Shown: positions 226-50,149, counted from the first letter of the stretch. The stretch is DNA of 63,061 nt from an uncultured Candidatus Saccharibacteria bacterium (GCA_964445905.1 CAYUNN010000007.1:1-63061); one strand, 5' to 3'. The notes: a model not told the origin generated them from the sequence alone. A program made the numbers and translations.

Positions 226-1725
226 ATGAAATACTTTATCTATGCAAGAAAATCAACCGATGAACCAGAAAGGCAAATCCTTTCCATTGAAGCTCAAATT
301 GAAGAATTGAGAGAATTCGCAAATAAGGAAGGGTTGGAAGTAGTAAAGACATACATAGAATCACGAACTGCCAAAGAGCCAGGCAGACCAATCTTCAATG
401 AAATGCTTTCTGAAATAGAGAAAGACAAGGCTTCGGGAATTTTAGCCTGGCATCCTGACAGATTGGCAAGAAATAGTATAGATGGAGGAAAAATAATATA
501 TCTCATTGATACAAATAAAATACAAAGCCTAAAATTCCCAACTTTCTGGTTCGAGGACACTCCTCAAGGAAAATTCATGCTGAACATTGCTTTTGGGCAA
601 AGTAAATATTATATAGATAATCTTTCAGAGAATGTAAAAAGAGGCTTAAGGCAGAAAGCTAGAAAAGGAGAAGCTTCCGGGGTAGCTCCTACAGGATACC
701 TAAATAACAGGCTAACCAAGAAAATGGCAAAAGATCCTGAAAGGTTTAAATTGGTAAAAAAACTTTTCAAGCTTTATGCAACTGGCAAGTATTCTCTGAA
801 AGAGATAAGGGAAATAATAACAGAGGAAGGATTGAGAAGCAGAAATAACAAGGTATTGTCTAAAAGCAATATACGGATGATTTTACAGAATCCATTCTAC
901 TACGGAGCCTTTCTTTCCAATGGAGAGCTTTTTCAGGGAACACATCCGCCAGCCATATCAAAGAAACTTTTTGACAAAGCGCAAAATATCCTCAAAGAAA
1001 AATCCAGGCCGAAGAAAAGAAGCGAGAAGGTATATGCTTTTCGGGGGATACTAAAGTGCGGGGAATGTGGTTGCGCAATTACTTCTGAAATTCAAAAAGG
1101 CCACACTTACTACAGGTGCACAAAAAAGCGCATCTCCTGCTTTCAAAAATACATTCGCGAAGAAGACCTGGATGAACAAATAAAAACTGTTCTTCGAAAA
1201 GTTTCTTTGCCAGACATTTGGAAAGAAGAAATGATAAGAAAGCTTGAAAAAGAAAAACAAGAAGATGAAAGAACCGGCTTTGCTTTTTCTCAAAATCTAA
1301 AAGCTCAAATTAAGAAATGCAATGCCAAGCTGGACAAGCTATTGGATAACCAGCTTGAAGAGATAATTACCAAAAAGGAATACATTGAGAAAAAGAAAGA
1401 ATTGTTAAATAAAAAGATTGAGCTTTCCCAAAGGCTCAAAGATTTTGAGAAAAAAGGCTCTTCATGGCTCGAACCTGCAAAAAGGTTTATTTTGGAGACA
1501 AATCAGGTTCAAAATGCAATAAACAGCAATAATCCCAAAGAAAGAGCCAGATATCTTCAAAAAGCCGGCTCGAACCTTGTTTTGTTGGATTCCAAAATCA
1601 AATATTTCCCACGGGGCCCGTGGGAAATACTCGGAAATTTGCCTGTTTTGGAAGCCGAGTCGCGAAGCGACGAGACGATATCACAATGCCAAAATGCGAA
1701 TCGTACTGTTATGCTGCGGGGCTAG
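226..1725 (+). CDS. Large serine recombinase (resolvase catalytic domain + recombinase domain + zinc ribbon + coiled coil)
   Basis: The N-terminus YARKSTDEPERQ...AWHPDRLARN fits the resolvase/invertase catalytic domain. CGECGC..YYRC looks like a zinc ribbon, and the C-terminal part is coiled-coil rich. 499 aa; the last ~20 codons are encoded by the right IR. Confidence 0.85.
   Translation: MKYFIYARKSTDEPERQILSIEAQIEELREFANKEGLEVVKTYIESRTAKEPGRPIFNEMLSEIEKDKASGILAWHPDRLARNSIDGGKIIYLIDTNKIQSLKFPTFWFEDTPQGKFMLNIAFGQSKYYIDNLSENVKRGLRQKARKGEASGVAPTGYLNNRLTKKMAKDPERFKLVKKLFKLYATGKYSLKEIREIITEEGLRSRNNKVLSKSNIRMILQNPFYYGAFLSNGELFQGTHPPAISKKLFDKAQNILKEKSRPKKRSEKVYAFRGILKCGECGCAITSEIQKGHTYYRCTKKRISCFQKYIREEDLDEQIKTVLRKVSLPDIWKEEMIRKLEKEKQEDERTGFAFSQNLKAQIKKCNAKLDKLLDNQLEEIITKKEYIEKKKELLNKKIELSQRLKDFEKKGSSWLEPAKRFILETNQVQNAINSNNPKERARYLQKAGSNLVLLDSKIKYFPRGPWEILGNLPVLEAESRSDETISQCQNANRTVMLRG
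1659..1716. repeat. Right arm of 58-bp inverted repeat
   Basis: See left arm. It overlaps the recombinase C-terminal codons and 3 nt of the tRNA-Gln 3' end. Confidence 0.9.
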
Positions 1726-3176: not shown

Positions 3177-3839
3177 CTATTTTTTAAATACAAAGAATTT
3201 AAACCCAGCGAAATTCCAAACAAAAGCAACAAAAGCAGCTATAACAATTGAAATGTTATCCCAGATTCTTTCAGTCAGCTCGAACTGGGGTCCAATATAC
3301 TTTGCAACAAACGTAGCAGCTGCCACGTTAATTACAAGACCAACCAGAGTAACTAAATAAAGCTTGCCGAACTCCTTTGTCTTTGATTCAGAATCTCTTT
3401 TATTAAAAGTCCAGTATTTGTTCCAAAAATAAGAATTTACAGCTCCTGCGCTGAAAGAAATAGCCTTAATTGCAGCAAACATTGAAGCTCCAACGGTTAT
3501 AGATAGAAAAACAACGCTACTGCTAGCCTCAAAGACTGCAGGGAAAACAGCGGGCAGCATAACAAAATACAATAAGTTAAAAAGTCCGAGATCAACTAAT
3601 GTATTCAAAACTCCAGCCAGGAAACACTTTGCTATCTGAAAAAGAACTGGTATTTTACGAGCCATAATATGGGCAATAAAAATCATAGCTAAAGAGCCAG
3701 CAGGAAGAAGAAAGAATAAAATAAAAGGATATCTCCCAATAATAGGTATTTCCCATTCAATAAAATTTAGAATAAAGGTTCCTATTAAGGCGGAAGCTAA
3801 ACCAATAATTATAGAAGCTAAAATATCATTTTTCTTCAT
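3177..3839 (-). CDS. GtrA-like polytopic membrane protein
   Basis: Multiple TM helices and the GtrA-type signature NSYFWNKYWTFNKR. Confidence 0.55.
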   Translation of the reverse strand: MKKNDILASIIIGLASALIGTFILNFIEWEIPIIGRYPFILFFLLPAGSLAMIFIAHIMARKIPVLFQIAKCFLAGVLNTLVDLGLFNLLYFVMLPAVFPAVFEASSSVVFLSITVGASMFAAIKAISFSAGAVNSYFWNKYWTFNKRDSESKTKEFGKLYLVTLVGLVINVAAATFVAKYIGPQFELTERIWDNISIVIAAFVAFVWNFAGFKFFVFKK

Positions 3840-23946: not shown

Positions 23947-24486
23947 TTAAATTTGTTTTTCTTTTTTATCAGTCGTTACTCTGCCTCCTTGCCATTGACC
24001 ACGATACAAATTAGATTCTCCTCTAACTTCAAAAAACATCAAGTGTAATACCCGAGAACCAAGTTCTAACTTAAAAACTTCGTCTCTAAAATTATACATT
24101 CCCATTGTTAGCCCTCCACAATAGCCAGGAGCGACTTGACCGCCAAAAATATAGACGCCTGATCTAAAAAGAGTCGAGCGAGGAGTAAAAATAGCCAAAA
24201 CATCTTTTGGCATATTTACCTTCTCAATTGTTTTCATTAAATAATATGTTTTTGGTTTTAAAGAAACTTCCATTTTCTCATCTTGATTAAACTTTGTAAT
24301 TAACTCTGTTTGGGGCGTGTCTCTTTCCTCTACGCCTAAAAATCCTTCTCCTTTAATTTCATATAACTCCCCTATTCTCAAATCAAACCCCGCCCCTTCA
24401 GGACTTTCAAGTTCTCTTTTAGAAAGATTTTCCACTAAATTATTCTCTCTAACTAATTGTAATAATTTTTCAGCGCCTAAGATCAT
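23947..24486 (-). CDS. dCTP deaminase / dUTPase-superfamily protein (second copy)
   Basis: GAGFDLRIGE...VAPGYCGGLTMGMYN...L.LG.RV.HLMFFEV pattern of the dcd/dut fold; 179 aa. Confidence 0.6.
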   Translation of the reverse strand: MILGAEKLLQLVRENNLVENLSKRELESPEGAGFDLRIGELYEIKGEGFLGVEERDTPQTELITKFNQDEKMEVSLKPKTYYLMKTIEKVNMPKDVLAIFTPRSTLFRSGVYIFGGQVAPGYCGGLTMGMYNFRDEVFKLELGSRVLHLMFFEVRGESNLYRGQWQGGRVTTDKKEKQI

Positions 24487-25419: not shown

Positions 25420-26676
25420 TTATTTAAAAACATAATTACTATAAATAGGAAAGGCTTTAGAAATATTTTTTACTTTTTCTTTAACTTTATTTTTAATAGA
25501 ATCGGACTGGCTATTTTCAATTAACTCACAAACTAAAATAGCTATTTCTTTTGCTTCCTTTTCTTTTATTCCCCTGGTAGTAATAGCGGGAGTTCCCATC
25601 CTAATACCAGAAGGATTAAAAGCAGATTTTTCATCAAAAGGAATTTTATTTCTATTGACAAAGAGGCCTACTTTTTCCAATTCATTTTGAATAAACATTG
25701 AAGATAAACCAGTAGAAGAAATATCGACCACAAATAAATGATTATCTGTTCCTCCGCTAACAATTCTAAGCCCTCTTTCTTTAAAAACATTTACCATCTC
25801 CCTAGCATTTAATATTATTTGCTCTTGGTATTTGTTAAAACTGCTTTCCATTGCTTCTTTAAAGCAAATTGCTTTAGCAGCAATCACATGCTCTAATGGC
25901 CCCCCTTGTACTCCGGGAAAAACTGCTCTATCAATTTTTTCTGCCAATTCTTCTTTACATAAAATTAATCCTCCTCTTGGTCCTCGCAAAGTCTTATGAG
26001 TCGTAGTAGTTACTACATCAGCAAAAGGAAAGGGGTGAGGATGAACCCCGGCCACAACCAGTCCTGCAATATGAGCAATGTCAGCCAGCAAGTAAGCCCC
26101 AACTTTATCAGCCACTTCTTTAAATTTCTTAAAGTCAAGTTTTCTAGAATAAGAAGTAGTAGAGGCAATTATAAGTTTAGGTTCAAATTTTTGGGCTTTC
26201 TCTTCTAAGTCATCGAAGTCAATCATTTCAGTCTTCTTGTTAACCCCATAATGAAAGAAATTATATGTGCGTCCAGAAAAATTAATTTTGGCCCCGTGAC
26301 TTAAATGCCCACCAGCAGATAAATCAAGAGCTAAAACTTTATCGCCAGGATGGAGAAGAGCAAAATAAGCAGCTTCGTTAGCCTGAGATCCTGAATGAGG
26401 TTGAACATTAGCATGATCTGCCTTAAATAATCTCTTGGCCCTATCAATAGCTATTTCTTCAATTTTATCAATAAAGCAATTACCAGAATAATACCTTTTT
26501 CCAGGATAACCCTCAGAGTACTTATTACTTAAGGGAGTAGCCATAACCGAAAGAACTTCCCAAGAAGCGTAATTCTCCGAAGGAATTAAAGTCAATCCTT
26601 CCTTCTGACGAGAAATCTCATTTTTAACTAAATTATAAATTTTGGGATCTGTTATATCTAAATTCATTTTAATCAT
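25420..26676 (-). CDS. glyA: Serine hydroxymethyltransferase
   Basis: LTLIPSENY, NKYSEGYPGKRYY, TTTTHKTLRGPRGG (PLP lysine). Confidence 0.93.
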   Translation of the reverse strand: MIKMNLDITDPKIYNLVKNEISRQKEGLTLIPSENYASWEVLSVMATPLSNKYSEGYPGKRYYSGNCFIDKIEEIAIDRAKRLFKADHANVQPHSGSQANEAAYFALLHPGDKVLALDLSAGGHLSHGAKINFSGRTYNFFHYGVNKKTEMIDFDDLEEKAQKFEPKLIIASTTSYSRKLDFKKFKEVADKVGAYLLADIAHIAGLVVAGVHPHPFPFADVVTTTTHKTLRGPRGGLILCKEELAEKIDRAVFPGVQGGPLEHVIAAKAICFKEAMESSFNKYQEQIILNAREMVNVFKERGLRIVSGGTDNHLFVVDISSTGLSSMFIQNELEKVGLFVNRNKIPFDEKSAFNPSGIRMGTPAITTRGIKEKEAKEIAILVCELIENSQSDSIKNKVKEKVKNISKAFPIYSNYVFK

Positions 26677-28273
26677 TAATTTTTCTTAAAATCTCTTGAA
26701 ACTTCTTCTCTAAATCTTCTTTCATCTCTCCGTGAAAATCTTCATCGTAATCTTTAACTAGTTTTTTGATATAACCGCAACTTTTTTCTTCGGGACAAAA
26801 ACCAACTAGTTCGCATTTAGAAAGAATTAAGTTTCCCAACCAACCAATTTCTTTTTCGTTCAAATGTTTTTTAATTAAAGCTACTTCTTCTAGAGTATTA
26901 CTTCTCATTTCTTCTTCGGCTGTCTGGCAAAGACGCAAAGGATAATAGCCAGTTAAAAGATTATATAAATCATAAGATTGTAAAACATCTAATTTTATAG
27001 CTCTTGGAATCAAGAAAATTGCTTCTCTTTTTGGAATTCCCAGATCAACTAATTTTACATAGCTTTCAAAAGAATCTTTAGCTACTAACAAATACTCTTT
27101 TAAATAATCAGGATTTTCTTTTATAAGAGAGGGTATCGAAATAACTTCCTCTGCTTTATTAATGATATCATTGCTAAGATTCCCTTCTTCAATTTTTTCT
27201 CCTATTTCATTAAATTTTCTCACTGCTCTATTCACACAATAATAAATAGATTCAACAATTTGAGGACAAGTTCGATGCCTTTTCTTTTCTCCCCAAACTC
27301 GCCAAGGAACAGAAGAAAGAATATCAATTTTTGCTGCAAGATTATAGTCCCTCAATATTTTACGCCGAGAGAGTAAAATTTCCTGCCATTTTTCCTTAAT
27401 CTTTTCTTTGCTTTTAACTGTTTCTTTTATTTCTTCCCAATGACTTTCTAGTTTTTCTTTCAGCTTAGGCGAAATATTAAAACTAGATGAAACTATTTCA
27501 AATTTTTCTTTTTTCTTCTCTGCTAACTCTCTTGTCAAATTGAAATCCTCTGGGTTCTTAAAAATATTCGGATAAGGATAACTGTTTCTGGGAGCGATTG
27601 AACGAGTACTGTAAAGTAAATCAACTCCCATTTCTTTAAATTTTTTCTCTAGTTCATTAATCAGCAAACCGGCTTCTTCCGGCATCCACTCTTTTTCAAT
27701 TTCATATTCTCTTTTAAAAGAAACTATGGATTCTAGGGGCAACTGAATAATACCTGTTCCGTAAATACCGTATTGTAAAATCTTTGAAGAAGTATCTTTT
27801 TTTACTCCTTTATCAAGAAGAGAGTTATAGAAATCTATCTTTCTATAAGAAGATTTTAAGTAAATATTTTTTGCTTCCTTATTTTTTAAAATTTCTTTAG
27901 GAAAAACAATATCCTCTTTGGAAGTATTGGTTCTTCTTCCAGAGCTTACAAGAAAAGATCCAAAATACATTCCCGTCAAAAGAGAATCTAGAAACTTGCT
28001 TCCTTCGTATAAAAAAGAAACTACTGGCGTAGTAGCTAAAGAAGCATGTCCTTTTAAGGAAGATTTTCTTAAAATCTTCTTGATCCTGTCGTCCACTTCT
28101 TCGCCTTTATCTAAGGTTTCTTTTAATAATTCCTGAACTGATTTACCTTTAAAGGTTAAGAGACCAGAAAAAGATACTATTTCTTGAGGATTAAAAAAAC
28201 CCATTTCTTGATTTAAAACAGGCACAATTCCTAAAAATTTTATTTTAAGATCTTTGGTAGTTAATTCTTCCAT
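26669..28273 (-). CDS. thyX: ThyX-like flavin-dependent thymidylate synthase, double-length (534 aa)
   Basis: The C-terminal half has RHRTCPQIVES (the RHR-x7-S ThyX motif) and a later LIPRA...LR..Q.A.EEMR. The N-terminal half has a GH..L and SSGRR degenerate copy. It lies between dcd and glyA. Confidence 0.55.
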   Translation of the reverse strand: MEELTTKDLKIKFLGIVPVLNQEMGFFNPQEIVSFSGLLTFKGKSVQELLKETLDKGEEVDDRIKKILRKSSLKGHASLATTPVVSFLYEGSKFLDSLLTGMYFGSFLVSSGRRTNTSKEDIVFPKEILKNKEAKNIYLKSSYRKIDFYNSLLDKGVKKDTSSKILQYGIYGTGIIQLPLESIVSFKREYEIEKEWMPEEAGLLINELEKKFKEMGVDLLYSTRSIAPRNSYPYPNIFKNPEDFNLTRELAEKKKEKFEIVSSSFNISPKLKEKLESHWEEIKETVKSKEKIKEKWQEILLSRRKILRDYNLAAKIDILSSVPWRVWGEKKRHRTCPQIVESIYYCVNRAVRKFNEIGEKIEEGNLSNDIINKAEEVISIPSLIKENPDYLKEYLLVAKDSFESYVKLVDLGIPKREAIFLIPRAIKLDVLQSYDLYNLLTGYYPLRLCQTAEEEMRSNTLEEVALIKKHLNEKEIGWLGNLILSKCELVGFCPEEKSCGYIKKLVKDYDEDFHGEMKEDLEKKFQEILRKIND

Positions 28274-28279
28274 GATAAT

Positions 28280-28855
28280 TTAATACTTCTCCTCTTCTAT
28301 TTTGCTTGCCTGAGGAGAAGATTGACCAGCGTATTTATGATCTTTTTGTTTTAAGTAAGGAGTTTCTGAAGGTGAAGACAGAGTTTCAAAAGTCATAGCA
28401 CAAATCCTTATTCCAGGATAAAGAGCAATGGGAATCACGCCTAAATTACCTACTTCCATTATAGCTTTTCCTCTCCACCCCGGATCAAATCTGGCCGCCG
28501 TAGAATGAACTACTAGCCCAAGCCTTCCGAGAGAACTTCTTCCATCAAGTCTTCCCATAATATCGGAAGGTAAAATGATTTTTTCTTTTGTCACCGCAAT
28601 AACAAAATCCCTTGGCCTTAAGATTAAAGGTTTTTCTTGAGTAATCTTAACTTCAGTCATTATCTCGTCAATGGGAGTTTTGTGATCATTTAAATCGATA
28701 AAAGGATGCTCGGTATGTTTGAAAAGCTTGAAAGATTCTCCTAAGTGCAAATCAAGAGAGCAAGGACCTAATTGTTTTTCAAAATCGGGCTCAGGAATAA
28801 TTTTGATTTTGCCTTCTAGGATATTTTTCTTAATGTCTCTGTCAGAAAGAATCAT
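28280..28855 (-). CDS. dcd: dCTP deaminase
   Basis: MILSDRDI...GPCSLDLHLGE...DGRSSLGRLGL.VH.TA...DPGW.G....E..N typical Dcd pattern. Confidence 0.85.
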   Translation of the reverse strand: MILSDRDIKKNILEGKIKIIPEPDFEKQLGPCSLDLHLGESFKLFKHTEHPFIDLNDHKTPIDEIMTEVKITQEKPLILRPRDFVIAVTKEKIILPSDIMGRLDGRSSLGRLGLVVHSTAARFDPGWRGKAIMEVGNLGVIPIALYPGIRICAMTFETLSSPSETPYLKQKDHKYAGQSSPQASKIEEEKY

Positions 28856-40566: not shown

Positions 40567-41547
40567 TCATTCGCATCTACAATAAGCCCAACGTTGATAA
40601 TAAGGTCCACATCTCCAACCAAAGTTCTGAGTTAAAGGAGTGTTGATATTGCCCGTACTCTCCAAGCAACCAGCCGCATTCCGATTCCAATAATGCCCAT
40701 CGTTACAAGTAGCATTTAATCCAATACTCTTAGCTTCAAGACCAAGTTCCGCACATCTTGCTGAACACGATAACCATTCTCTCCAGTTATCATCTTGACA
40801 TGTGCCACAACTTAAATAACAAGGTGCGCATCCCTCATTTTTAACTCCTTGTTCACTGGCAGAAAAAAAGCCCCCTCCTTCCAACTCAGCCCAAACACAA
40901 TATAAGCTTCGATCACTAGCATTGCTTGCAACGCAATAATTTACACCTGCAATATTATTGCATTCACTGTTTCCTCCCCCTGGATCTTTTGGCCAGAGAG
41001 CTAAATGATCAGGAGTTGGATTCTCTCCGAGTGCCATCCTGTCGCTGATTCCTGATTCAGAAATTAACTCAGGATACTCTTCGTTGATAACGTAATACAT
41101 TTCCATAGCCCACATGATATGCCTAATGTCAGATTTCCTTCTTGCGTCTCTTGTGCCTAAATACTCCAAGGAAGTAGAATATACTTTTATTCTTGTTTTG
41201 TTCTCGTTTTCATACCCAATCATATATCTTTCTCCCGGGCTTGGATCCTCGGGAAGCTGAGCGATAAAGATGGGGACCAGTTCGTCTTCGCATTCGGAAA
41301 CATCTACAACTTGATTATAACCAGGAACACAATCAGGATATCTCCCTTTATTTTCTATTTGATAGATATAAAATGCGTTTCCTATAGAATTAATATGTCC
41401 TTCCCTGGTAGTATTCCTTGCTTGCTCAAACTGACGAACAGGATTAATGGCTATTATTGCCACTGCAGTAATAATAGCAAGAATGCCAATAACAAGAACT
41501 ATTTCTATTAATGTAAAACCTTTACTTTTAGATAAAAATAATTTCAC
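40567..41547 (-). CDS. Composite type IV pilin-like protein (prepilin leader + two pilin-type head segments + Cys-rich tail)
   Basis: Class III signal KSKG/FTLIEIVLVIGILAI. The internal RDARRKSDIRHIMWAMEMYY and YCVWAELEGGGFFSASEQG duplicate the core of the 141-aa pilin at 43526-43951. The last ~80 aa are Cys-rich. Confidence 0.8.
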   Translation of the reverse strand: MKLFLSKSKGFTLIEIVLVIGILAIITAVAIIAINPVRQFEQARNTTREGHINSIGNAFYIYQIENKGRYPDCVPGYNQVVDVSECEDELVPIFIAQLPEDPSPGERYMIGYENENKTRIKVYSTSLEYLGTRDARRKSDIRHIMWAMEMYYVINEEYPELISESGISDRMALGENPTPDHLALWPKDPGGGNSECNNIAGVNYCVASNASDRSLYCVWAELEGGGFFSASEQGVKNEGCAPCYLSCGTCQDDNWREWLSCSARCAELGLEAKSIGLNATCNDGHYWNRNAAGCLESTGNINTPLTQNFGWRCGPYYQRWAYCRCE

Positions 41548-43198: not shown

Positions 43199-43328
43199 GG
43201 TTTCAATTTACTGCTTCTATTTTCTAAAACAATAGTTAATTTATTTTATAAAAAACTTGGTTATATTAAGAAAAATTGTACCATCCTAAAAAAAGAGTAA
43301 TTAATTTAAACCTTTACTTTATTATATC

Positions 43329-43405
43329 AAAATACCGCCTTCAAAATAAGGCGGTATTATCCACAAGTGATGCGGGGACTACCGGACGATTTTCGAACTT
43401 TTAAC
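43329..43405. repeat. tRNA-Asp-3'-end-derived repeat, copy B (terminator + tRNA 3' fragment)
   Basis: 43329-43387 is 57/59 identical to 49142-49200. 43371-43402 matches copies C and D. Confidence 0.92.
43332..43357 (-). terminator. Copy of the tRNA-Asp terminator hairpin
   Basis: ataccgcc-ttcaaaataa-ggcggtat, identical to 49145-49170. Confidence 0.6.
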
Positions 43406-43525: not shown

Positions 43526-43951
43526 TTACCAGCAACAACCAGTTGTTGTTTCAATCTCACGTGTCCCTTTTTCACTGGCAGCATAAAAATCACCTTCTTC
43601 TAAATCAACGTAAATACAATACCATTGCCTACCTCCTTTTCCACCACATGAATTGCTATTGTTCAGCCAATTATAATTGCCGCCCTGCGGATCTTCGGGT
43701 ATAGGATTTAAATAACTACCAACAGCAGTGGGCGTAGCAAAACCAGCTTGAACATAGTACTGATTATCATCATAGAACATTTCCATGGCCAAATTAATTT
43801 GTCTAATATCTGATTTCCTTCTTGCATCTCTTGCTTTCGCTCTTGCTCCCCCCAAAGAGACTAAAACAATTGAAGCCAAAACGCCAATGATAGCAATGAC
43901 TACTAATAATTCAATCAATGTAAAACCTTTTTGTTTAGCTGTTTTAATCAT
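43526..43951 (-). CDS. Type IV pilin (prepilin with class III signal)
   Basis: MIKTAKQKG/FTLIELLVVIAIIGVLASI, a conserved Glu at position 5 of the mature protein, and C-terminal Cys residues. 141 aa. Confidence 0.88.
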   Translation of the reverse strand: MIKTAKQKGFTLIELLVVIAIIGVLASIVLVSLGGARAKARDARRKSDIRQINLAMEMFYDDNQYYVQAGFATPTAVGSYLNPIPEDPQGGNYNWLNNSNSCGGKGGRQWYCIYVDLEEGDFYAASEKGTREIETTTGCCW

Positions 43952-44068: not shown

Positions 44069-45106
44069 TTATTTTTTTATTTTTTTCAAAATATCTTCAT
44101 ATTTTTTAGCAACACTGTCCCAGTCAAATTCCTTACTCCTTTGATTGGCTTGTTCGCCCATTATTTTTCTTGAAAAAATATCTTCTTTTAATAATTTTGC
44201 TTTTTCTTTAAATTCATTAAAATTCTGGACAACAAATCCTGTTTTATTGTTTAAAACAATTTTTGGCATTTCTTCTATTTCATATAAAATACTTGGCTTG
44301 CCACAAGCACCTGCCTCTAAAAAAATTAATCCAAAACACTCCCATTCAGACGCAGAAACAAAAAAAGAACATTCTTGATAATTCTTAATTAATTCTTTTC
44401 TTTTCCTTGAAACCATTCCTAAAAAATTAACAGGCGCGTTTAATTTTTTAGCAATTTTTTTTAATTTCTTTTCCTCTGAACCATACCCGATAACATTCAA
44501 GGGGAAATCTATCTCTTTGCTTATTTTTATTAATTGTTCAACTCTTTTATGTTTTTCCAGCCTACCCACGTAAAGCATATAATTTTCATCTTTCCAATTT
44601 ACTTTGAACAACTTAGTATCTACCCCATTTGAAATTAAAACAGGAAGAGAATTAATCTTTTTTGCTTTTTCTTTTAAAAATTCAGAAATACAAATAATTT
44701 TTTTGTTTTTTAATTTTCTTTCAAAAAAAATCACAATAAATTTCCGGAAAATATTTTTTGTAGGAGGAGAACCATGCCATGTATATACAACTTCGAAGTT
44801 ATTTGTAGCAGGAGAAAGCCCTACATGATGAACGTTGATTATATCAAATCTTATCTTTTTATTTAATTCCTCTATTTCCCTTCTCAAATTTTTTATATTT
44901 TTAAAATAAAGAAAATCTTTTAATTTTCCACTAAATAATTTTGGAATTTTAATTTTTATAAACTTAAAATTATCTTCTTTAATATTTGTTTCTCCGGCAA
45001 GAACAAAAACTTGATGCTTTCTTCCAAGCCTTTTAGCTAGTTCATATATTACAGTATCTACCCCTCTTCCCTCAAAAAAAGTATCATTAATAAAAGCTAC
45101 CTTCAT
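44069..45106 (-). CDS. GT-B glycosyltransferase (GT4/group 1 family)
   Basis: E-x7-E motif (EWECFGLIFLEAGACGKP) and overall GT4 layout. Overlaps the upstream OST gene by 4 nt. Confidence 0.75.
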   Translation of the reverse strand: MKVAFINDTFFEGRGVDTVIYELAKRLGRKHQVFVLAGETNIKEDNFKFIKIKIPKLFSGKLKDFLYFKNIKNLRREIEELNKKIRFDIINVHHVGLSPATNNFEVVYTWHGSPPTKNIFRKFIVIFFERKLKNKKIICISEFLKEKAKKINSLPVLISNGVDTKLFKVNWKDENYMLYVGRLEKHKRVEQLIKISKEIDFPLNVIGYGSEEKKLKKIAKKLNAPVNFLGMVSRKRKELIKNYQECSFFVSASEWECFGLIFLEAGACGKPSILYEIEEMPKIVLNNKTGFVVQNFNEFKEKAKLLKEDIFSRKIMGEQANQRSKEFDWDSVAKKYEDILKKIKK

Positions 45107-47997
45107 TTTATAAATTCTAAATTATCTAATTCCGCATACTCTCCAAAACTCATTAAAAATTCTTGTCTTATAAGGATATTCTCAGGAATGGTTCTTGTGT
45201 CCCATATTTTAATTGGACCTTTTAATCCTTGATAATAAACAAATTCTCCAATTTCAATACCCCGAGACCTTAGATCGTTTATAATAAAATCTGATTCAAT
45301 GTGAGCAAGTTTAATTGTGGGGTATTTACCTAGAGGATCGTCCATTAAATAAAGATGAGCAAATAAACTATCTTTTACTTTTTCAGAAAGATAAACAACT
45401 GCCCCGGCTCTATCTATAGTAATTTCTCCACTAATATTTTGCTGAATAGAAGGCATTACTTGAATAAGAGAGTTTATTCCTATTTCGAAATCAAGTATTT
45501 CTCCATTTAAATAAAGATACCTTATAGGAATTCTGTATTGATTATTGTTTATAGAAAATACTCCTATTGGCCGGCTAAATGAATTTAATTCTTTCCTATT
45601 TGAAATTTCAAGTAATACTCCTTTAAGAATTGCTCTTTCTGAAGGCAATAAAAGAGAAACTCCATTTAAATCATAAATAATATCTTTATCAACGTAATTA
45701 CCTCCTATATAGGCTCTAATTTCTCCTGTATCAGTTTCTTGCGTCTGCCTTGCGTCTAAAGGTATCACAGAAATCATAGATAATCTGTCTTTTCTAGATT
45801 CGTCACTTCCGATGCCAGAAAAAGTAGGATACTTCTCAATATCGGTTGAATCAATTAACAAGTAAGAAATATTCATACTCTTTATTAAACTTAAAGCAGT
45901 TTCGGGAAAAGGAGTTGTCATCAAGTATCGCGCAGTTGTATGAACAAACCACTTATTTATATGCCTTCCATCGGTTACGGTTGGCCTTTCGCCAAGTGTT
46001 TGAATCCAATAACCATAATCCCACCAATGAACAAATATACTCCCCTGGGGAGTTTTTGTTCTTACAAAATTCATTGCTTTTTGCCACTGGTAATCGTAAT
46101 CAGATGGAACCATATTTTTTGCTCCATGAACCGTTGAATAAGAAAAGTAAATAAAAACATGTGCCGTAGCAAAAAGAATAACAGCAAAAATAAAAATAAT
46201 TAATGTTCTAATCATTTTTCCCTTTATATTCAAACATTCGCTAAATCTTAAAATTAAATAAGTAGAGACAATAATAAAAATTGGAGAAATTATAAAGAAT
46301 AATCTTACAGCGCCTCTCATTGAAACAGTTGCCCAAAAAGACAATGCAAGGAGAACCAAATAAGAAATATCTATTTTTTTAAAACACTCAATCGTTTTAA
46401 GATCTTTTTTAAAATGTGCTCTTGAGAAAAACCAAATCAAAATACCTAAGAATATAGCTAACCCTCCAAAATAAAGAATTCTTGAAAGAAAATTCTCTCC
46501 ATTTAAAGTGTGTTGTGGAGAAATTCTAGAAAAAATAAGACTTGATAGAAATAAGATAAATGAAAAATTTAAAATAATTTTTTTCTTTAAATTAAAATGC
46601 TTTATTGCGCTATAAAATAATGCAATTGCACCAAAATAAAACAACCAAAATAAATACCCAAAACTTCTAAAAACTTCTGTAAAATAAGGGGCTCTATTTT
46701 CAGTAATAGTTAGCGCTATCCTCTCTCTCCCAAAAGGATAAAGCAATCCTTCAATTATTTTAAGCAATGAATTAAACAACAAAGAAGGGTTTAGAATTAT
46801 AAGAGTTATAGTAATAATCAAGGTAGAAACAATTACTAAAATAATGTTTTTTGGAAAGTTTATTCTATTAATTTTTATTTTTTTATACAATCTAGTATTA
46901 AAGAGAAAATAACTAATAATCATAAAAAACAAGACGCCCACAGCAAAACCGCTATCGCTTAAACTTGTAATAACTGTTTCAATTTTTCCAGTTTTAAAAA
47001 TTTCAAAAATAATAGCAGGGATTAAAAAAGATAAATAAATAATTAAATTTTTATTTCTGTCTCTTTCAAAAATAAACACAATAAAGGCGACTAATGCAAC
47101 AGTCATAAATATATATTTATACCCACCCCACGTTAAACTCATGGCTCCTGTAAAAATTCCCGAAATCATTCCAAATAAAACCCATTTTCTTTTTTTAATT
47201 TCTTTCCATGCCAAAACAAAGAAAATGAGTGCTGGCCAAAAAAATACCATTCCTAAACTTTCTAATTCTGGAATTCCAGCAATTGTTCTGTAGAGCATAG
47301 AGGGTGCAAATGAGTAAAAAAATGAAGCAATGGTCGCACCAGTTAAAGATTTTTTTATTGAAAACTTAAATGAAAAAATAAAATATACAAAAAGAAAAAA
47401 TCCGATAATAGACATTAAAAAGAAAATAACTGGCGCAATAATTGCTGCATAGGTCACAGAAAACTCTCCAAACAAATTAATAATCTTATAAATGCCAAAA
47501 ATAGACCAGGGCATAAGATTTCTATATACGTATTGATTAAATGCACCAAGGGGAGCCTGTCTAAATAAATCAATTCTGTTAATGCTCCCCCTGCTTATCT
47601 CAATTGCATTTCTTAAAAATAAATAAGGATCTAAATCTGGCCCAAGTATCCAGTCATTTGTTGTAATATCTTTCAATCCACCCATGTTTGATATTCTTAC
47701 AATGACTGTTATGAATAACAACCAAACAATTAACGGAAGGAACATTAGTTTATATTTTTCAAAATAAGCCAAAATTCCAGACAATAAAAACATTAGCCCC
47801 AAGAAAAACCACCAAAAAAAAGAAAATATACCTAAAACATCTTCAAAAAAAACACTCCCAAAAAAGAAATTAATATATCTAAATAAGCTTATGACTAGAA
47901 CAAAAAAACCTAATAAACAAAATACAAAGACATAATTATTCTTTAAAATAATCTCTTTGAAGCAATCTTTTATTTTTTTCTCTTTTTTAACAACCAC
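45103..47997 (-). CDS. STT3/AglB/PglB-family oligosaccharyltransferase (964 aa)
   Basis: Multi-TM N-terminal domain with a first-loop DLDPYLFLR (cf. STT3 DPYFNYR) and AGIPELE. WWDYGYW is encoded at 46007-46027. YLLIDSTDIEKY lies ~60 aa later (DK motif; cf. YVLV..DDINKF). Confidence 0.85.
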   Translation of the reverse strand: MVVKKEKKIKDCFKEIILKNNYVFVFCLLGFFVLVISLFRYINFFFGSVFFEDVLGIFSFFWWFFLGLMFLLSGILAYFEKYKLMFLPLIVWLLFITVIVRISNMGGLKDITTNDWILGPDLDPYLFLRNAIEISRGSINRIDLFRQAPLGAFNQYVYRNLMPWSIFGIYKIINLFGEFSVTYAAIIAPVIFFLMSIIGFFLFVYFIFSFKFSIKKSLTGATIASFFYSFAPSMLYRTIAGIPELESLGMVFFWPALIFFVLAWKEIKKRKWVLFGMISGIFTGAMSLTWGGYKYIFMTVALVAFIVFIFERDRNKNLIIYLSFLIPAIIFEIFKTGKIETVITSLSDSGFAVGVLFFMIISYFLFNTRLYKKIKINRINFPKNIILVIVSTLIITITLIILNPSLLFNSLLKIIEGLLYPFGRERIALTITENRAPYFTEVFRSFGYLFWLFYFGAIALFYSAIKHFNLKKKIILNFSFILFLSSLIFSRISPQHTLNGENFLSRILYFGGLAIFLGILIWFFSRAHFKKDLKTIECFKKIDISYLVLLALSFWATVSMRGAVRLFFIISPIFIIVSTYLILRFSECLNIKGKMIRTLIIFIFAVILFATAHVFIYFSYSTVHGAKNMVPSDYDYQWQKAMNFVRTKTPQGSIFVHWWDYGYWIQTLGERPTVTDGRHINKWFVHTTARYLMTTPFPETALSLIKSMNISYLLIDSTDIEKYPTFSGIGSDESRKDRLSMISVIPLDARQTQETDTGEIRAYIGGNYVDKDIIYDLNGVSLLLPSERAILKGVLLEISNRKELNSFSRPIGVFSINNNQYRIPIRYLYLNGEILDFEIGINSLIQVMPSIQQNISGEITIDRAGAVVYLSEKVKDSLFAHLYLMDDPLGKYPTIKLAHIESDFIINDLRSRGIEIGEFVYYQGLKGPIKIWDTRTIPENILIRQEFLMSFGEYAELDNLEFIK

Positions 47998-48034
47998 AAT
48001 AAAATAAATTTATTTAAAAAGTTTTAATTTAATT

Positions 48035-49042
48035 TTAATCAATCATAAAAAACCCTATTAAAATAAATAAAATCTGAATTGTAAATATAAAATAAACAAC
48101 ATCTTTTTCGTAAACTTTTTTCTTGAATTTTTCTAAAAACCATATTGAAAAATGAGTTATTCCATAAATCTTTTTATATGGTTTTTTCAAACTTCCATCT
48201 TTTTGAGGAATTCCAAAAGATTGTTTTTTTAATCTTCCTCTTAATTTTAAAATCATTTCAAAAAAATAAGGAATAAAAATAACTAGTGCAATTTTTCCAA
48301 AATCTCCTAAAATAGCCATCCCAGCTATTAGAGCTCCAATTGAGTAAGTTAAAATATCTCCCGGAAAAACCTTTGCGGGAAATTTATTATAAAAATAAAA
48401 TACAATTAATGAAGAAACCATGATCAATCCAATTAAGGCTAGCCACGTACTTCCAGTCACATAAGAAACATAACTTAAAAAAACCAAAATCAAGATTCCT
48501 TGTCCAGATTCCAATCCATTAAATCCAGCTAAAAAATTATAAGTTATGGCTACACCCGCAACGCCTAAAGGGATTAAAACTAACGGGAAAAACAATCCAA
48601 GATCAACTAATCCTAAAAAAGGCACGTCTACAAAATTATTTCCTAAATTTATTATAATTAATGGAATAGAAGCAATTAAACTTAAAAAAATCCTTGTTTT
48701 TTTCGAAAGATTTTTATTTTTCCATTCCAATAAATCATCTAACAAGCCAATAATTGACAAGTTGAAAATTACAAATAATAATGCAAGCGATTGAATGATA
48801 ACTAACCAGTTATTTTCAAAAAAAAGTATTTGAATTGTAATATAAGACAAAACACCCAAAATAAAACCAGCCATAACAACCACTCCACCTGAAGGTGCAA
48901 TATTCTTATGTTTCCCAATGGGATATTTATTCATATCGCTCCAGACCAATCCAATACTTCTGCACTTTTTAATCCACCAGGGCAATGCAATTAGACAAAA
49001 AAGAAAACTCACTATCACAATTAAGAATAATAACGGATTCAT
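48035..49042 (-). CDS. Polyprenyl-phosphate GlcNAc-1-phosphate transferase, Alg7/AglH-like (glycosyltransferase family 4)
   Basis: ~10 TM helices. GLLDDL Asp-Asp motif. NFLAGFNGLESGQG matches the eukaryotic/archaeal GPT form (N.LAG.NGLE.GQ) rather than the bacterial MraY/WecA form. Confidence 0.78.
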   Translation of the reverse strand: MNPLLFLIVIVSFLFCLIALPWWIKKCRSIGLVWSDMNKYPIGKHKNIAPSGGVVVMAGFILGVLSYITIQILFFENNWLVIIQSLALLFVIFNLSIIGLLDDLLEWKNKNLSKKTRIFLSLIASIPLIIINLGNNFVDVPFLGLVDLGLFFPLVLIPLGVAGVAITYNFLAGFNGLESGQGILILVFLSYVSYVTGSTWLALIGLIMVSSLIVFYFYNKFPAKVFPGDILTYSIGALIAGMAILGDFGKIALVIFIPYFFEMILKLRGRLKKQSFGIPQKDGSLKKPYKKIYGITHFSIWFLEKFKKKVYEKDVVYFIFTIQILFILIGFFMID

Positions 49043-49144
49043 ATTATTTTAACATTAAAATTTTTAAATCTTTTAGCTGTCTTTTTATATATCCTCCAAC
49101 ATTAATTTTGTCTTAATCAGTTAATGTTTCCTTATTCTACTAAA

Positions 49145-49170
49145 ATACCGCCTTCAAAATAAGGCGGTAT
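49145..49170 (-). terminator. Intrinsic terminator downstream of tRNA-Asp
   Basis: 8-bp stem ataccgcc/ggcggtat with a 10-nt loop, followed by a U-run on the minus strand. Confidence 0.65.
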
Positions 49171-49185
49171 TATCCACAACTGATG

Positions 49186-49259
49186 CGGGGACGACCGGAC
49201 TCGAACCGGCGATCTCCTCTGTGACAGAGAGGTGTGTTATCCAGCTACACCACGCCCCC
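49186..49259 (-). tRNA. tRNA-Asp (GUC)
   Basis: 74-nt cloverleaf: acceptor GGGGGCG/CGTCCCC, D stem GTGT/ACAC, anticodon stem CCTCT/AGAGG with loop CTGTCAC, T arm GCCGG-TTCGAGT-CCGGT. Confidence 0.88.
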
Positions 49260-49919
49260 ATGAATTTTAATAAAATCATCAAAAACCTTTTTCTTTCTTT
49301 TCATGTATAAATAATTAGAAAGATTATCATATAAAAAATGATAAATTTTAAGAGCACTAAACGTACTATAGTGCAATCTATAGGCTCTGTCAAGATATTT
49401 TATGGAAGCACTAACTTCTAAAATATCTTGGAGTTTATCTCTTAACTCCTTTAATAAGTTTTTACTCCCTGAAGTAAATCCTAAGATAAGGACGGGGTAA
49501 GGAGAAGGACGATCATTTTTATGAGAATAACCTTTCCAAATATTTCCATCTCCATCAAAATATCCTCTAGTAAAATCAGAAAGATATTCTAAAGGAATAC
49601 GGGGCAACGTTACTTCTTTACTTTTGTTGGGAATCATTCCTAGATTTAAAAGATCTCTAAACATTTCCTTGCTACCAATTTGAAATCTATAGATTGTACT
49701 CCAATTATCCTTTCTCTTTCTTACTGTTATTTTGTGATTTGAATTCATTACATTCCTTATATTTTTTAAAAGTTCGTAATCGGTATTATGAAAATCAATA
49801 TATTTCGAAGATCTTGGATTTTCAAATATGCATCCGTCTGCCAGAAAAAAACCTAAGACATAAGCCATTTCTCTAGACCAACTCTTAAAAAAATCTTCGT
49901 TTTTATTCCTAACTATCAT
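49245..49919 (-). CDS. LAGLIDADG homing endonuclease (double-motif, free-standing)
   Basis: Two LAGLIDADG motifs, LGFFLADGC and RGYFDGDGN, about 100 aa apart. 224 aa. The last 15 nt, including the stop codon, lie inside tRNA-Asp. Confidence 0.85.
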   Translation of the reverse strand: MIVRNKNEDFFKSWSREMAYVLGFFLADGCIFENPRSSKYIDFHNTDYELLKNIRNVMNSNHKITVRKRKDNWSTIYRFQIGSKEMFRDLLNLGMIPNKSKEVTLPRIPLEYLSDFTRGYFDGDGNIWKGYSHKNDRPSPYPVLILGFTSGSKNLLKELRDKLQDILEVSASIKYLDRAYRLHYSTFSALKIYHFLYDNLSNYLYMKRKKKVFDDFIKIHGGVV

Positions 49920-49977
49920 TGCTCAAAAAAGAATAAAATCTGATTATATTTCTCTCTTAATCACAAAAACAACAAAA

Positions 49978-50048
49978 TGCCGGGGGCAGGAATCGAACCT
50001 ACGTTAACCGCTTATGAGACGGCTTTAGATGCCAATCTACTCCCCGGC
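49978..50048 (-). tRNA. tRNA-Met-type (CAU; elongator Met or Ile2)
   Basis: Acceptor GCCGGGG/CCCCGGC, anticodon loop CTCATAA, T arm GTAGG-TTCGATT-CCTGC, short D arm. 71 nt. Confidence 0.75.
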
Positions 50049-50078
50049 AAATTACCAGGTTCGAAAATTTTAATCTTG

Positions 50079-50149
50079 TTGCGGGGGCCGGAATTGCACC
50101 GGCGTCTTCAGCTTATGGGACTGACGAGGTACTACTCCTCCACCCCGCG
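50079..50149 (-). tRNA. tRNA (CAU) with a C1-A72 mismatch, possible initiator tRNA-fMet
   Basis: Cloverleaf CGCGGGG-TG-GAGG-AGTAGTA-CCTC-G-TCAGT-CCCATAA-GCTGA-AGAC-GCCGG-TGCAATT-CCGGC-CCCCGCA-A. Confidence 0.65.

Follow-up and report, generated by a model that had tools for sequence, protein, structure and literature searches.

Three adjacent genes of an uncultured bacterium probably form a minimal archaeal-type module for lipid-linked N-glycosylation, gained by a rare kind of interdomain transfer from a DPANN archaeon into a member of the Candidate Phyla Radiation (CPR). The genes lie on the minus strand at 44069-49042 of the window, the whole stretch of DNA analysed here (63,061 nt; GCA_964445905.1, CAYUNN010000007.1:1-63061, from an uncultured Candidatus Saccharibacteria bacterium). 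The first gene of the cassette (48035-49042) encodes a 335-aa polyprenyl-phosphate HexNAc-1-P transferase of the AglH/Alg7 (DPAGT1) type, here called GPT (GlcNAc-1-P transferase). It is followed by the gene for a 964-aa STT3/AglB-type oligosaccharyltransferase (OST; GT66, GT-C fold; 45103-47997, GTG start) and by that for a 345-aa GT4 glycosyltransferase with a GT-B fold (44069-45106). A first-pass annotation made from the sequence alone had described three co-oriented, tightly packed genes, and calls of open reading frames (ORFs) confirmed their coordinates and strand, including the 4-nt overlap of the OST and GT4 genes (45103-45106); 37 nt separate the GPT and OST genes. The enzymes and their chemistry are already known; the bacterial host domain and the packaging are new.

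The three enzymes of the cassette

GPT matches the Pfam family Glycos_transf_4 (PF00953; E = 1.3e-28, 100 bits against a cut-off of 27) and carries the motifs DD (residues 102-103), NFLAGFNGLESGQG (169-182; 48497-48538) and PGD (227-229). Fifteen homologues all keep its DD, NFLAGFNGLESGQ and PGD motifs unchanged, with D102-D103, N169...Q181 and P227-G-D229 aligning to the DPAGT1 motifs, and it has the NxLAGxNGLExGQ motif in the eukaryotic/archaeal form. The structures used for comparison were those of DPAGT1 and MraY, with no WecA structure in the set. Human DPAGT1 was the best match in the PDB for the single sequence (5.7e-13; MraY, 1.5e-8) and ranked ahead of MraY again with a profile of the 15 homologues (1.1e-22, 84 bits vs. 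7.4e-15, 58 bits), which bears out the earlier assignment to the DPAGT1/AglH form rather than to MraY. With PF00953, the three motifs and its greater nearness to DPAGT1, GPT is an AglH/Alg7 (DPAGT1)-type member of the PNPT superfamily. A role as MraY in wall synthesis was rejected, since the NCBIfam mraY model gave 27 bits against a cut-off of 192 and DPAGT1 matches better; a WecA-like role, unlike the MraY role, retains some probability. From its family, GPT is predicted to use UDP-GlcNAc and dolichyl or polyprenyl phosphate.

The hallmark motifs of the OST, including all of those quoted in the first-pass annotation, were found on translation: DLD in the first external loop (EL1; 47629-47637), ELE (47260-47268), TITE (the TIXE/SVSE motif; 46699-46710), WWDYGYW (residues 658-664) and the DK motif DIEK (D719-I-E-K722; 45832-45843). 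WWDYGYW lies at 46006-46026, one base off the position first given, and the DK-type stretch YLLIDSTDIEKY begins 48 aa past its end, so that the earlier distance of about 60 aa was roughly right. In alignment with yeast Stt3, D121/D123 correspond to EFDP (D123 = D47), E244/E246 to D166-N-E168, T430-I-T-E433 to SVSE350, and WWDYG to WWDYG; DIEK aligns with DWAK, the DK motif of P. furiosus AglB. Residues D123, E246, E433 and those of WWDYG are invariant across 38 homologues, and D121 and E244 are present in at least 90% of them.

Profile and structure searches place the protein among OST catalytic subunits. NCBIfam archaeo_STT3 (TIGR04154) matched residues 190-718 at 5.1e-19, a score under that subfamily's trusted cut-off. 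A profile of the 38 homologues retrieved yeast Stt3 (9e-25), STT3B (9e-23), STT3A (~1e-22) and A. fulgidus AglB (AfAglB; 3e-18) from the PDB, and no PglB chain at E <= 0.01, so that sequence affinity to the PglB subfamily was not seen. The AF2 model (pLDDT 89.4, pTM 0.86) has a single weak spot at residues 425-430 of the EL5 loop, where low pLDDT fits a flexible EL5. As the first-pass annotation would have it, this model retrieved only OST catalytic subunits at the top of a Foldseek search of the PDB: the 19 best matches were STT3A/B, Stt3, AfAglB and PglB, with AfAglB aligned over 989 columns (TMq 0.52) and PglB at TM ~0.45-0.60. The protein thus combines a profile match, multiple transmembrane spans with a C-terminal periplasmic OST fold (a beta-rich, AglB-like domain at residues 633-964), the catalytic acidic residues, and the WWDYG and DK motifs, which make up the pocket for the +2 Ser/Thr of the sequon. 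These features predict transfer of a lipid-linked glycan to the Asn of N-x-S/T.

GT4 belongs to the GT4 (GT-B) family, with matches above cut-off to Pfam Glycos_transf_1 (PF00534; 1.8e-28) and Glyco_transf_4 (PF13439; 8.8e-16). The E-x7-E motif that had been ascribed to it is present as ECFGLIFLE (residues 256-264). Its best NCBIfam match is Agl16, far under the cut-off of that model, and its presumed role is to extend the lipid-linked HexNAc by a second sugar.

Archaeal relatives and the direction of transfer

All relatives of the trio belong to DPANN archaea, at identities of only 50-63%. The best 80 OST loci among GTDB species representatives all come from archaeal metagenome-assembled genomes (MAGs; 80/80), and the named OST homologues are Pacearchaeota or Nanoarchaeota. 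Full-length identities of 55-61% link GPT to 121 GPT genes that adjoin an OST gene in archaeal loci. The gene order of the cassette is also native there: a GPT gene adjoins the OST gene in 62 of 86 loci, a 44-58% identical GT4 gene follows in 7 of the 86, and the exact order GPT-OST-GT4 is found in two (L002 and L009). GT4 orthologues (44-55% identity) stand directly after an OST or GPT gene in eight archaeal loci. Archaeal markers were counted in six of nine contexts, among them L32e, L19e, prefoldin and EMC3 in L002, L004 and L005, EMC3 in L174, and RNA polymerase Rpb4/N in L003, whose SecD/SecF-OST neighbourhood recurs in L006. A conserved neighbourhood of ribosomal proteins, SecY, EMC3, prefoldin, IF-2B, SpoIIM, GPT and OST is common to L002, L004, L005 and L174.

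When the ORFs of the window were compared with 166 archaeal-type loci, only the trio matched, apart from a weak match of a Na/Ca-exchanger ORF (28% identity); the host genes match host relatives alone and none of the 166 loci. Probes for archaea-specific genes were found in 79 of these 166 loci, and the same probes found none in the window. No bacterial-type prepilin was found in the 86 loci L001-L086. Sequence comparison strongly supports as donor type a DPANN lineage with MAGs that carry the labels Pacearchaeota, Woesearchaeota or Nanoarchaeota. The first-pass proposal of a horizontal, archaeal-type origin is upheld by the DPANN homologues, by the native gene order there and by absence of the trio from sister bacterial genomes (see below).

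Could the OST and GPT instead be native to some CPR, or ancestral, and have passed to DPANN? Transfers from CPR to DPANN have been predicted in groundwater (PMC12455944), and the window OST is comparatively isolated, its nearest-neighbour distance ranking 109th of 118. We consider this extremely improbable. All 166 related loci are non-host, and the best 80 GTDB records are archaeal; the GPT/OST pair sits within a conserved archaeal core neighbourhood and is missing at the same site in three related CPR genomes. In a neighbour-joining tree the window OST is nested, not basal, at least four nodes inside the archaeal family (100/100 bootstraps), and its sister group includes sequences from archaeal contexts. 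Finally, its base composition is anomalous in the bacterium and normal in archaea: in archaeal loci, the GC content of the OST gene exceeds that of its locus by 1.0 point (sd 1.1), vs. a deficit of 3.5 points for the OST gene in the window.

Some observations bear on the relatives and on possible routes. L002 (JGI Ga0369713_1000036; P0024, NCBI K0A97_01815) is labelled 'Patescibacteria group bacterium', and its 147-kb contig has L32e/L19e/L18(L5e), prefoldin and EMC3; this contig is archaeal and has been mis-assigned to CPR. JGI samples near the host ones in number hold sister-group OST homologues (L174 in 3300077201, with archaeal synteny, and L001, protein P0008, with unannotated genes beside the OST gene, in 3300076002). 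Because the sample numbers lie close together, donor-type archaea and recipient may co-occur in one study system. A search for a plasmid vector gave no match for a plasmid carrying an OST homologue, and the sole match to a phage vector was distant (11% coverage; a Nitrosopumilaceae spindle-shaped virus). In ORF25 of a virus of this kind (BK067786.1, 10879-11187), a stretch that resembles the WWDYG/DK region of the OST (residues 638-743; 32% identity, E = 1e-7) is possibly a virus-borne OST-like domain.

Bacterial host and repeat-bounded unit

The trio stands in a bacterial contig. The window encodes DnaX, DnaB, an FtsI-type penicillin-binding protein, RsmH, ClpB, GyrB, bacterial PheS/PheT, GatC/GatA and MreB. 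Patescibacteria proteins match its GyrB and GatA at 65-89% identity, the nearest named being those of Ca. Nealsonbacteria; these sequences identify the host as a Patescibacteria (CPR) bacterium, in line with the ultra-small-genome bacterium supposed at first. Three related genomes (L170, L171 and L172; GatA 76-80% identical to that of the window) share with it the series ACS, aminoacyl-tRNA synthetase, MreB, GatC, GatA, a 178-aa gene, tRNA-Met, tRNA-Met and tRNA-Asp. L170 and L171 also share PheS/PheT further downstream, and L171 extends to GyrB. Despite this flanking synteny, the trio is absent from all three (3/3). The second tRNA-Met and tRNA-Asp were compared, for a possible foreign or archaeal origin, with the tRNAs of the loci, a set that holds no archaeal tRNA-Asp; they were 73-78% identical to those of the relatives, and the first tRNA-Met, which looks like a slow-evolving initiator, 94-97%. 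The trio is also atypical in composition, its GC content (26.6-28.9%) being under that of every host gene (mean 34.1%, sd 2.4, minimum 30.4%).

Two direct repeats of 74 nt, 91% identical, mark out the inserted unit. Copy 1 (49127-49200) precedes the GPT gene and includes the final 16 nt of tRNA-Asp(GTC) (49185-49259, minus strand; ARAGORN; Rfam 62.4 bits), an 11-bp hairpin followed by a U-run (49144-49171) and a -10-like box, TAGAAT. In copy 2 (43314-43387) the tRNA-Asp 3' end survives as a degenerate remnant; the hairpin recurs at 43331-43358, and the -10-like box reads TATAAT. This copy has a type IV (pseudo)pilin gene upstream and a PNPOx-like gene downstream. The hairpins fold at -18 kcal/mol (copy 1; z = -4.0) and -18.1 kcal/mol (copy 2; z = -4.4). 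The pilin gene (43526-43951, minus strand, 141 aa) is the last ORF within the unit, 117 nt from the GT4 gene. The first-pass annotation had placed a repeat-bounded cassette directly upstream of this gene; the repeats are there, but copy 2 comes after the pilin gene, which the unit therefore includes. The unit is thus 5.7 kb long, stands beside tRNA-Asp and holds the trio and a bacterial pilin gene. It mixes archaeal enzymes with a bacterial pilin, since the globular domain of the pilin has CPR homologues, and tRNA-Asp marks the insertion site, since its 3' end is part of copy 1.

Alignment of the regions downstream of tRNA-Asp shows one tRNA-terminator-promoter arrangement in the relatives and two in the window, bracketing GPT, OST, GT4 and pilin. 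Because they are framed by two terminators, the four genes look like one transcription unit. A scan of 43.1-50.3 kb for promoter and terminator consensus sequences found sites no more often than in shuffled sequence. Downstream of tRNA-Asp lies a variable hot spot, where the three relatives differ from each other (a 414-aa unknown, a trehalase/GH15 set, and a cupin/rhodanese set).

The unit resembles tRNA-targeted genomic islands in its direct repeats with a tRNA 3' end, its atypical GC and its absence from the same site in relatives. It differs from them in having no cognate integrase inside it (none of the four ORFs between the repeats is a recombinase), in a 74-nt repeat that runs on through a terminator and a -10 box, and in a gene for a LAGLIDADG homing endonuclease on the other side of the tRNA. 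Just one recombinase, a serine integrase, is encoded in the window, at 226-1725 (plus strand) and 41 kb from the unit (phrog_95, 1e-87; Resolvase, Recombinase and Zn_ribbon_recom domains). Its ORF ends 13 nt inside tRNA-Gln (1713-1784), on the opposite (minus) strand at the contig edge, possibly as part of a second integrated element. The endonuclease ORF (49245-49919, minus strand, 224 aa; Pfam LAGLIDADG_3, 3.8e-15; GC 29.8%) adjoins the unit from outside, wedged between tRNA-Met (49977-50049) and tRNA-Asp, whose 5' end its last 15 nt overlap. It matches the phrog_4645 endonuclease (1.1e-43) and PDB 2DCH ('putative homing endonuclease'; 3e-6). The ORF is missing from the three related genomes, where tRNA-Met and tRNA-Asp are 3-5 nt apart, and its product may have had a role in bringing the neighbouring cassette in.

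An archaeal fragment misjoined into a bacterial contig, through faulty assembly or binning, might also give a trio whose composition is unlike the rest of the contig. Labels of CPR and DPANN are at times confused, as P0024 on its archaeal contig illustrates, and a Logan contig of the same organism ends in a tRNA-Met just ahead of the region. Such an artefact is very unlikely here. Bacterial genes lie on both sides of the trio in one 63-kb contig with archaeal markers nowhere in it, and the 74-nt repeats that bracket the unit carry the 3' end of the host tRNA-Asp and enclose a pilin gene of host-like GC (37.8%). Both junctions also recur in two other samples (L167/L168; JGI 3300077564 and 3300077317), whose contigs repeat the stretch from GatA to a 326-aa pilin, one over 20.3 kb (99.95% identity) and the other over 14.2 kb (100%); one of the two has 10 single-nucleotide differences and different contig ends. 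All 10 differences among the replicate assemblies fall outside the cassette, and the three ORFs are 100% identical. Together, the replicate assemblies and the repeat architecture led us to reject a chimeric contig. The Logan contig (L169, 100% identical) stops inside the first tRNA-Met, at window position 50121, before the variable stretch; population heterogeneity could account for this end.

Elsewhere in the window, an unusually long ThyX-like protein (534 aa; 26669-28273, minus strand) has its Thy1 domain at residues 322-469 only, and two dCTP-deaminase-like paralogues are encoded near it (23947-24486 and 28280-28855, minus strand).

Putative pathway and known systems

The transferred module would be the minimum for making and transferring a lipid-linked disaccharide. 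At the cytoplasmic face, GPT would place HexNAc-1-P on polyprenyl phosphate, probably as GlcNAc-1-P from UDP-GlcNAc; a cell that makes peptidoglycan already has both UDP-GlcNAc and polyprenyl phosphate. GT4 would add a second sugar, an enzyme encoded outside the cassette would flip the lipid-linked disaccharide, and the OST would move the glycan to Asn in N-x-S/T of exported proteins, with N97-N-S of the pilin as a candidate. In this scheme the identities of the sugars, the lipid carrier (undecaprenyl or dolichyl phosphate), the flippase and the acceptor are all predictions.

The cassette pilin is the obvious candidate acceptor. It has a GFTLIE prepilin signal, with matches to Pfam N_methyl (2.4e-10) and to NCBIfam GspG and IV_pilin_GFxxxE, and its globular domain has homologues in the related CPR genome L170 and in the 326-aa pilin-like protein of the window (40567-41547, minus strand). 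The latter also has a GFTLIE signal, an internal copy of the domain that is 40% identical to that of the cassette pilin, a Cys-rich C-terminal extension and four N-x-S/T sequons (N45, N116, N209 and N278); it is a possible further acceptor. The GtrA/DPMS_TM family is thought to translocate polyprenyl-phosphate-linked sugars, and a membrane protein of this family (3177-3839, minus strand; 2.7e-17) is therefore a candidate for the flippase missing from the cassette.

Several points weigh against the reading of the trio as a transferred N-glycosylation module. Its activity in the bacterium is something we infer. Among the ORFs of the cassette there is no flippase, as had been noted at the outset, and the unit lacks an integrase. 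The usual carriers of AglH and AglB are dolichyl lipids, and bacteria make none. The Pfam STT3 models PF02516, PF21436 and PF22627 match the OST at 2e-4 to 2e-3, under their gathering scores. The nearest archaeal relatives are only 54% (OST), 61% (GPT) and 55% (GT4) identical, and the donor is therefore unsampled. The direction of transfer is read from nesting in a distance tree and from taxonomic distribution. The module is known from one bacterial population, and the three assemblies of it may share study and assembler and hence be partly dependent. Only one N-x-S/T sequon, N97-N-S (43655-43663), occurs in the pilin, in a loop where both homologues lack one, and in its single-sequence AF2 model (pLDDT 49.9) the N-terminal helix alone is confident.

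The missing flippase, the carrier lipid that differs between the domains, the single population and the single sequon would all suit a real transfer with non-functional cargo, or with a role other than N-glycosylation (e.g. GPT and GT4 priming a wall or surface glycopolymer, with the OST idle). So would the further glycosyltransferases and epimerases of the native archaeal loci, which were not co-transferred. We regard this as rather unlikely, though by no means negligible. The three ORFs are full length and identical between assemblies, and the OST keeps every family-invariant residue, including WWDYG and DK, at ~50% divergence from its nearest relative. The operon-like packing has likewise been kept, with its 4-nt overlap and 37-nt gap, and the hairpin and -10 elements of the repeats delimit a single transcription unit of four genes.

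The module shares with the archaeal AglB pathway (A. fulgidus AglB, 3WAJ/7E9S; Sulfolobus AglH, Agl16 and AglB) its enzyme families and order of action. The fold of its OST is that of AglB, with the DxD, second acidic pair, TIXE, WWDYG and DK motifs; its GPT is of the eukaryotic/archaeal form, like AglH, and the GPT-OST-GT4 order is native in DPANN. In contrast to that pathway, it sits in a bacterial chromosome, has one glycosyltransferase and no epimerase, methyltransferase or flippase, and would have to use a bacterial polyprenol as carrier; its OST is at most 54% identical to sampled AglB. The best solved-structure matches by sequence are eukaryotic DPAGT1 (Alg7) and STT3, and the catalytic residues align one to one with those of yeast Stt3. 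Unlike eukaryotic STT3, the window OST is single-subunit, with an AglB-like C-terminal domain and no accessory OST subunits, in a prokaryotic setting.

With the Campylobacter Pgl system (PglC, PglA and others, PglK and PglB), the module would share a bacterial, single-subunit, lipid-linked en bloc N-glycosylation encoded at one locus, and PglB is a structural match of its OST. It differs in the DK motif of the OST, where PglB has an MI motif according to the literature, and in starting with a polytopic, DPAGT1-like GPT where Pgl starts with a monotopic phosphoglycosyl transferase of the PglC type. It also has no ABC flippase and no sign of the extended D/E-x-N-x-S/T sequon. Bacterial pilin O-glycosylation (PglL/PilO/TfpO) likewise has an oligosaccharyltransferase gene beside a type IV pilin gene, but those enzymes are O-linking, of the Wzy_C type and unrelated to STT3, whereas the window pairs an archaeal enzyme predicted to be N-linking with a bacterial GFTLIE pilin, a pairing known here from the genes.

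To our knowledge, bacterial STT3-type N-glycosylation is confined to the PglB lineage. We found no published report, in the full-text literature, of an AglB-type OST or N-glycosylation system in Patescibacteria, CPR or Parcubacteria. Gene exchange between Patescibacteria and DPANN has been discussed in general terms (PMC12455944), and CPR sequences go unmentioned in the available portion of a three-domain Stt3/AglB phylogeny (PMC4973528). Type IV pilin-like proteins are among the targets of AglB in archaea, and N-glycosylated type IV pilins or archaellins occur, e.g., in Methanococcus maripaludis (PMC4390842).

A natural AglH/AglB pair in a bacterial chromosome would show that three genes suffice to carry an archaeal/eukaryote-style pathway from one domain to another, and would add a concrete, mechanistically interpretable case to the reported gene traffic between CPR and DPANN. 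It would also offer a natural test of how well AglH and AglB enzymes tolerate bacterial polyprenol carriers and membranes. If the reading is true, a GlcNAc-initiating, single-subunit OST adapted to a bacterial cell would be of interest for bacterial glycoengineering (cf. PMC12229607).

It is a bolder and, in our view, improbable proposal that this CPR bacterium decorates its pili or surface with an archaeal-style Asn-linked glycan, using a module captured from co-resident DPANN archaea that shares a small tRNA-linked unit with its own type IV pilin. If so, it would be the first AglB-type, GlcNAc-initiated N-glycosylation to act on bacterial lipids and bacterial substrates. Because relatives such as Ca. 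Nealsonbacteria are reported to be episymbionts of methanogens, the glycan might then help the cell to recognise or mimic archaeal partners where the two meet. The link to the pilin suggests a testable role in cell-cell attachment, in organisms that live attached to other cells.

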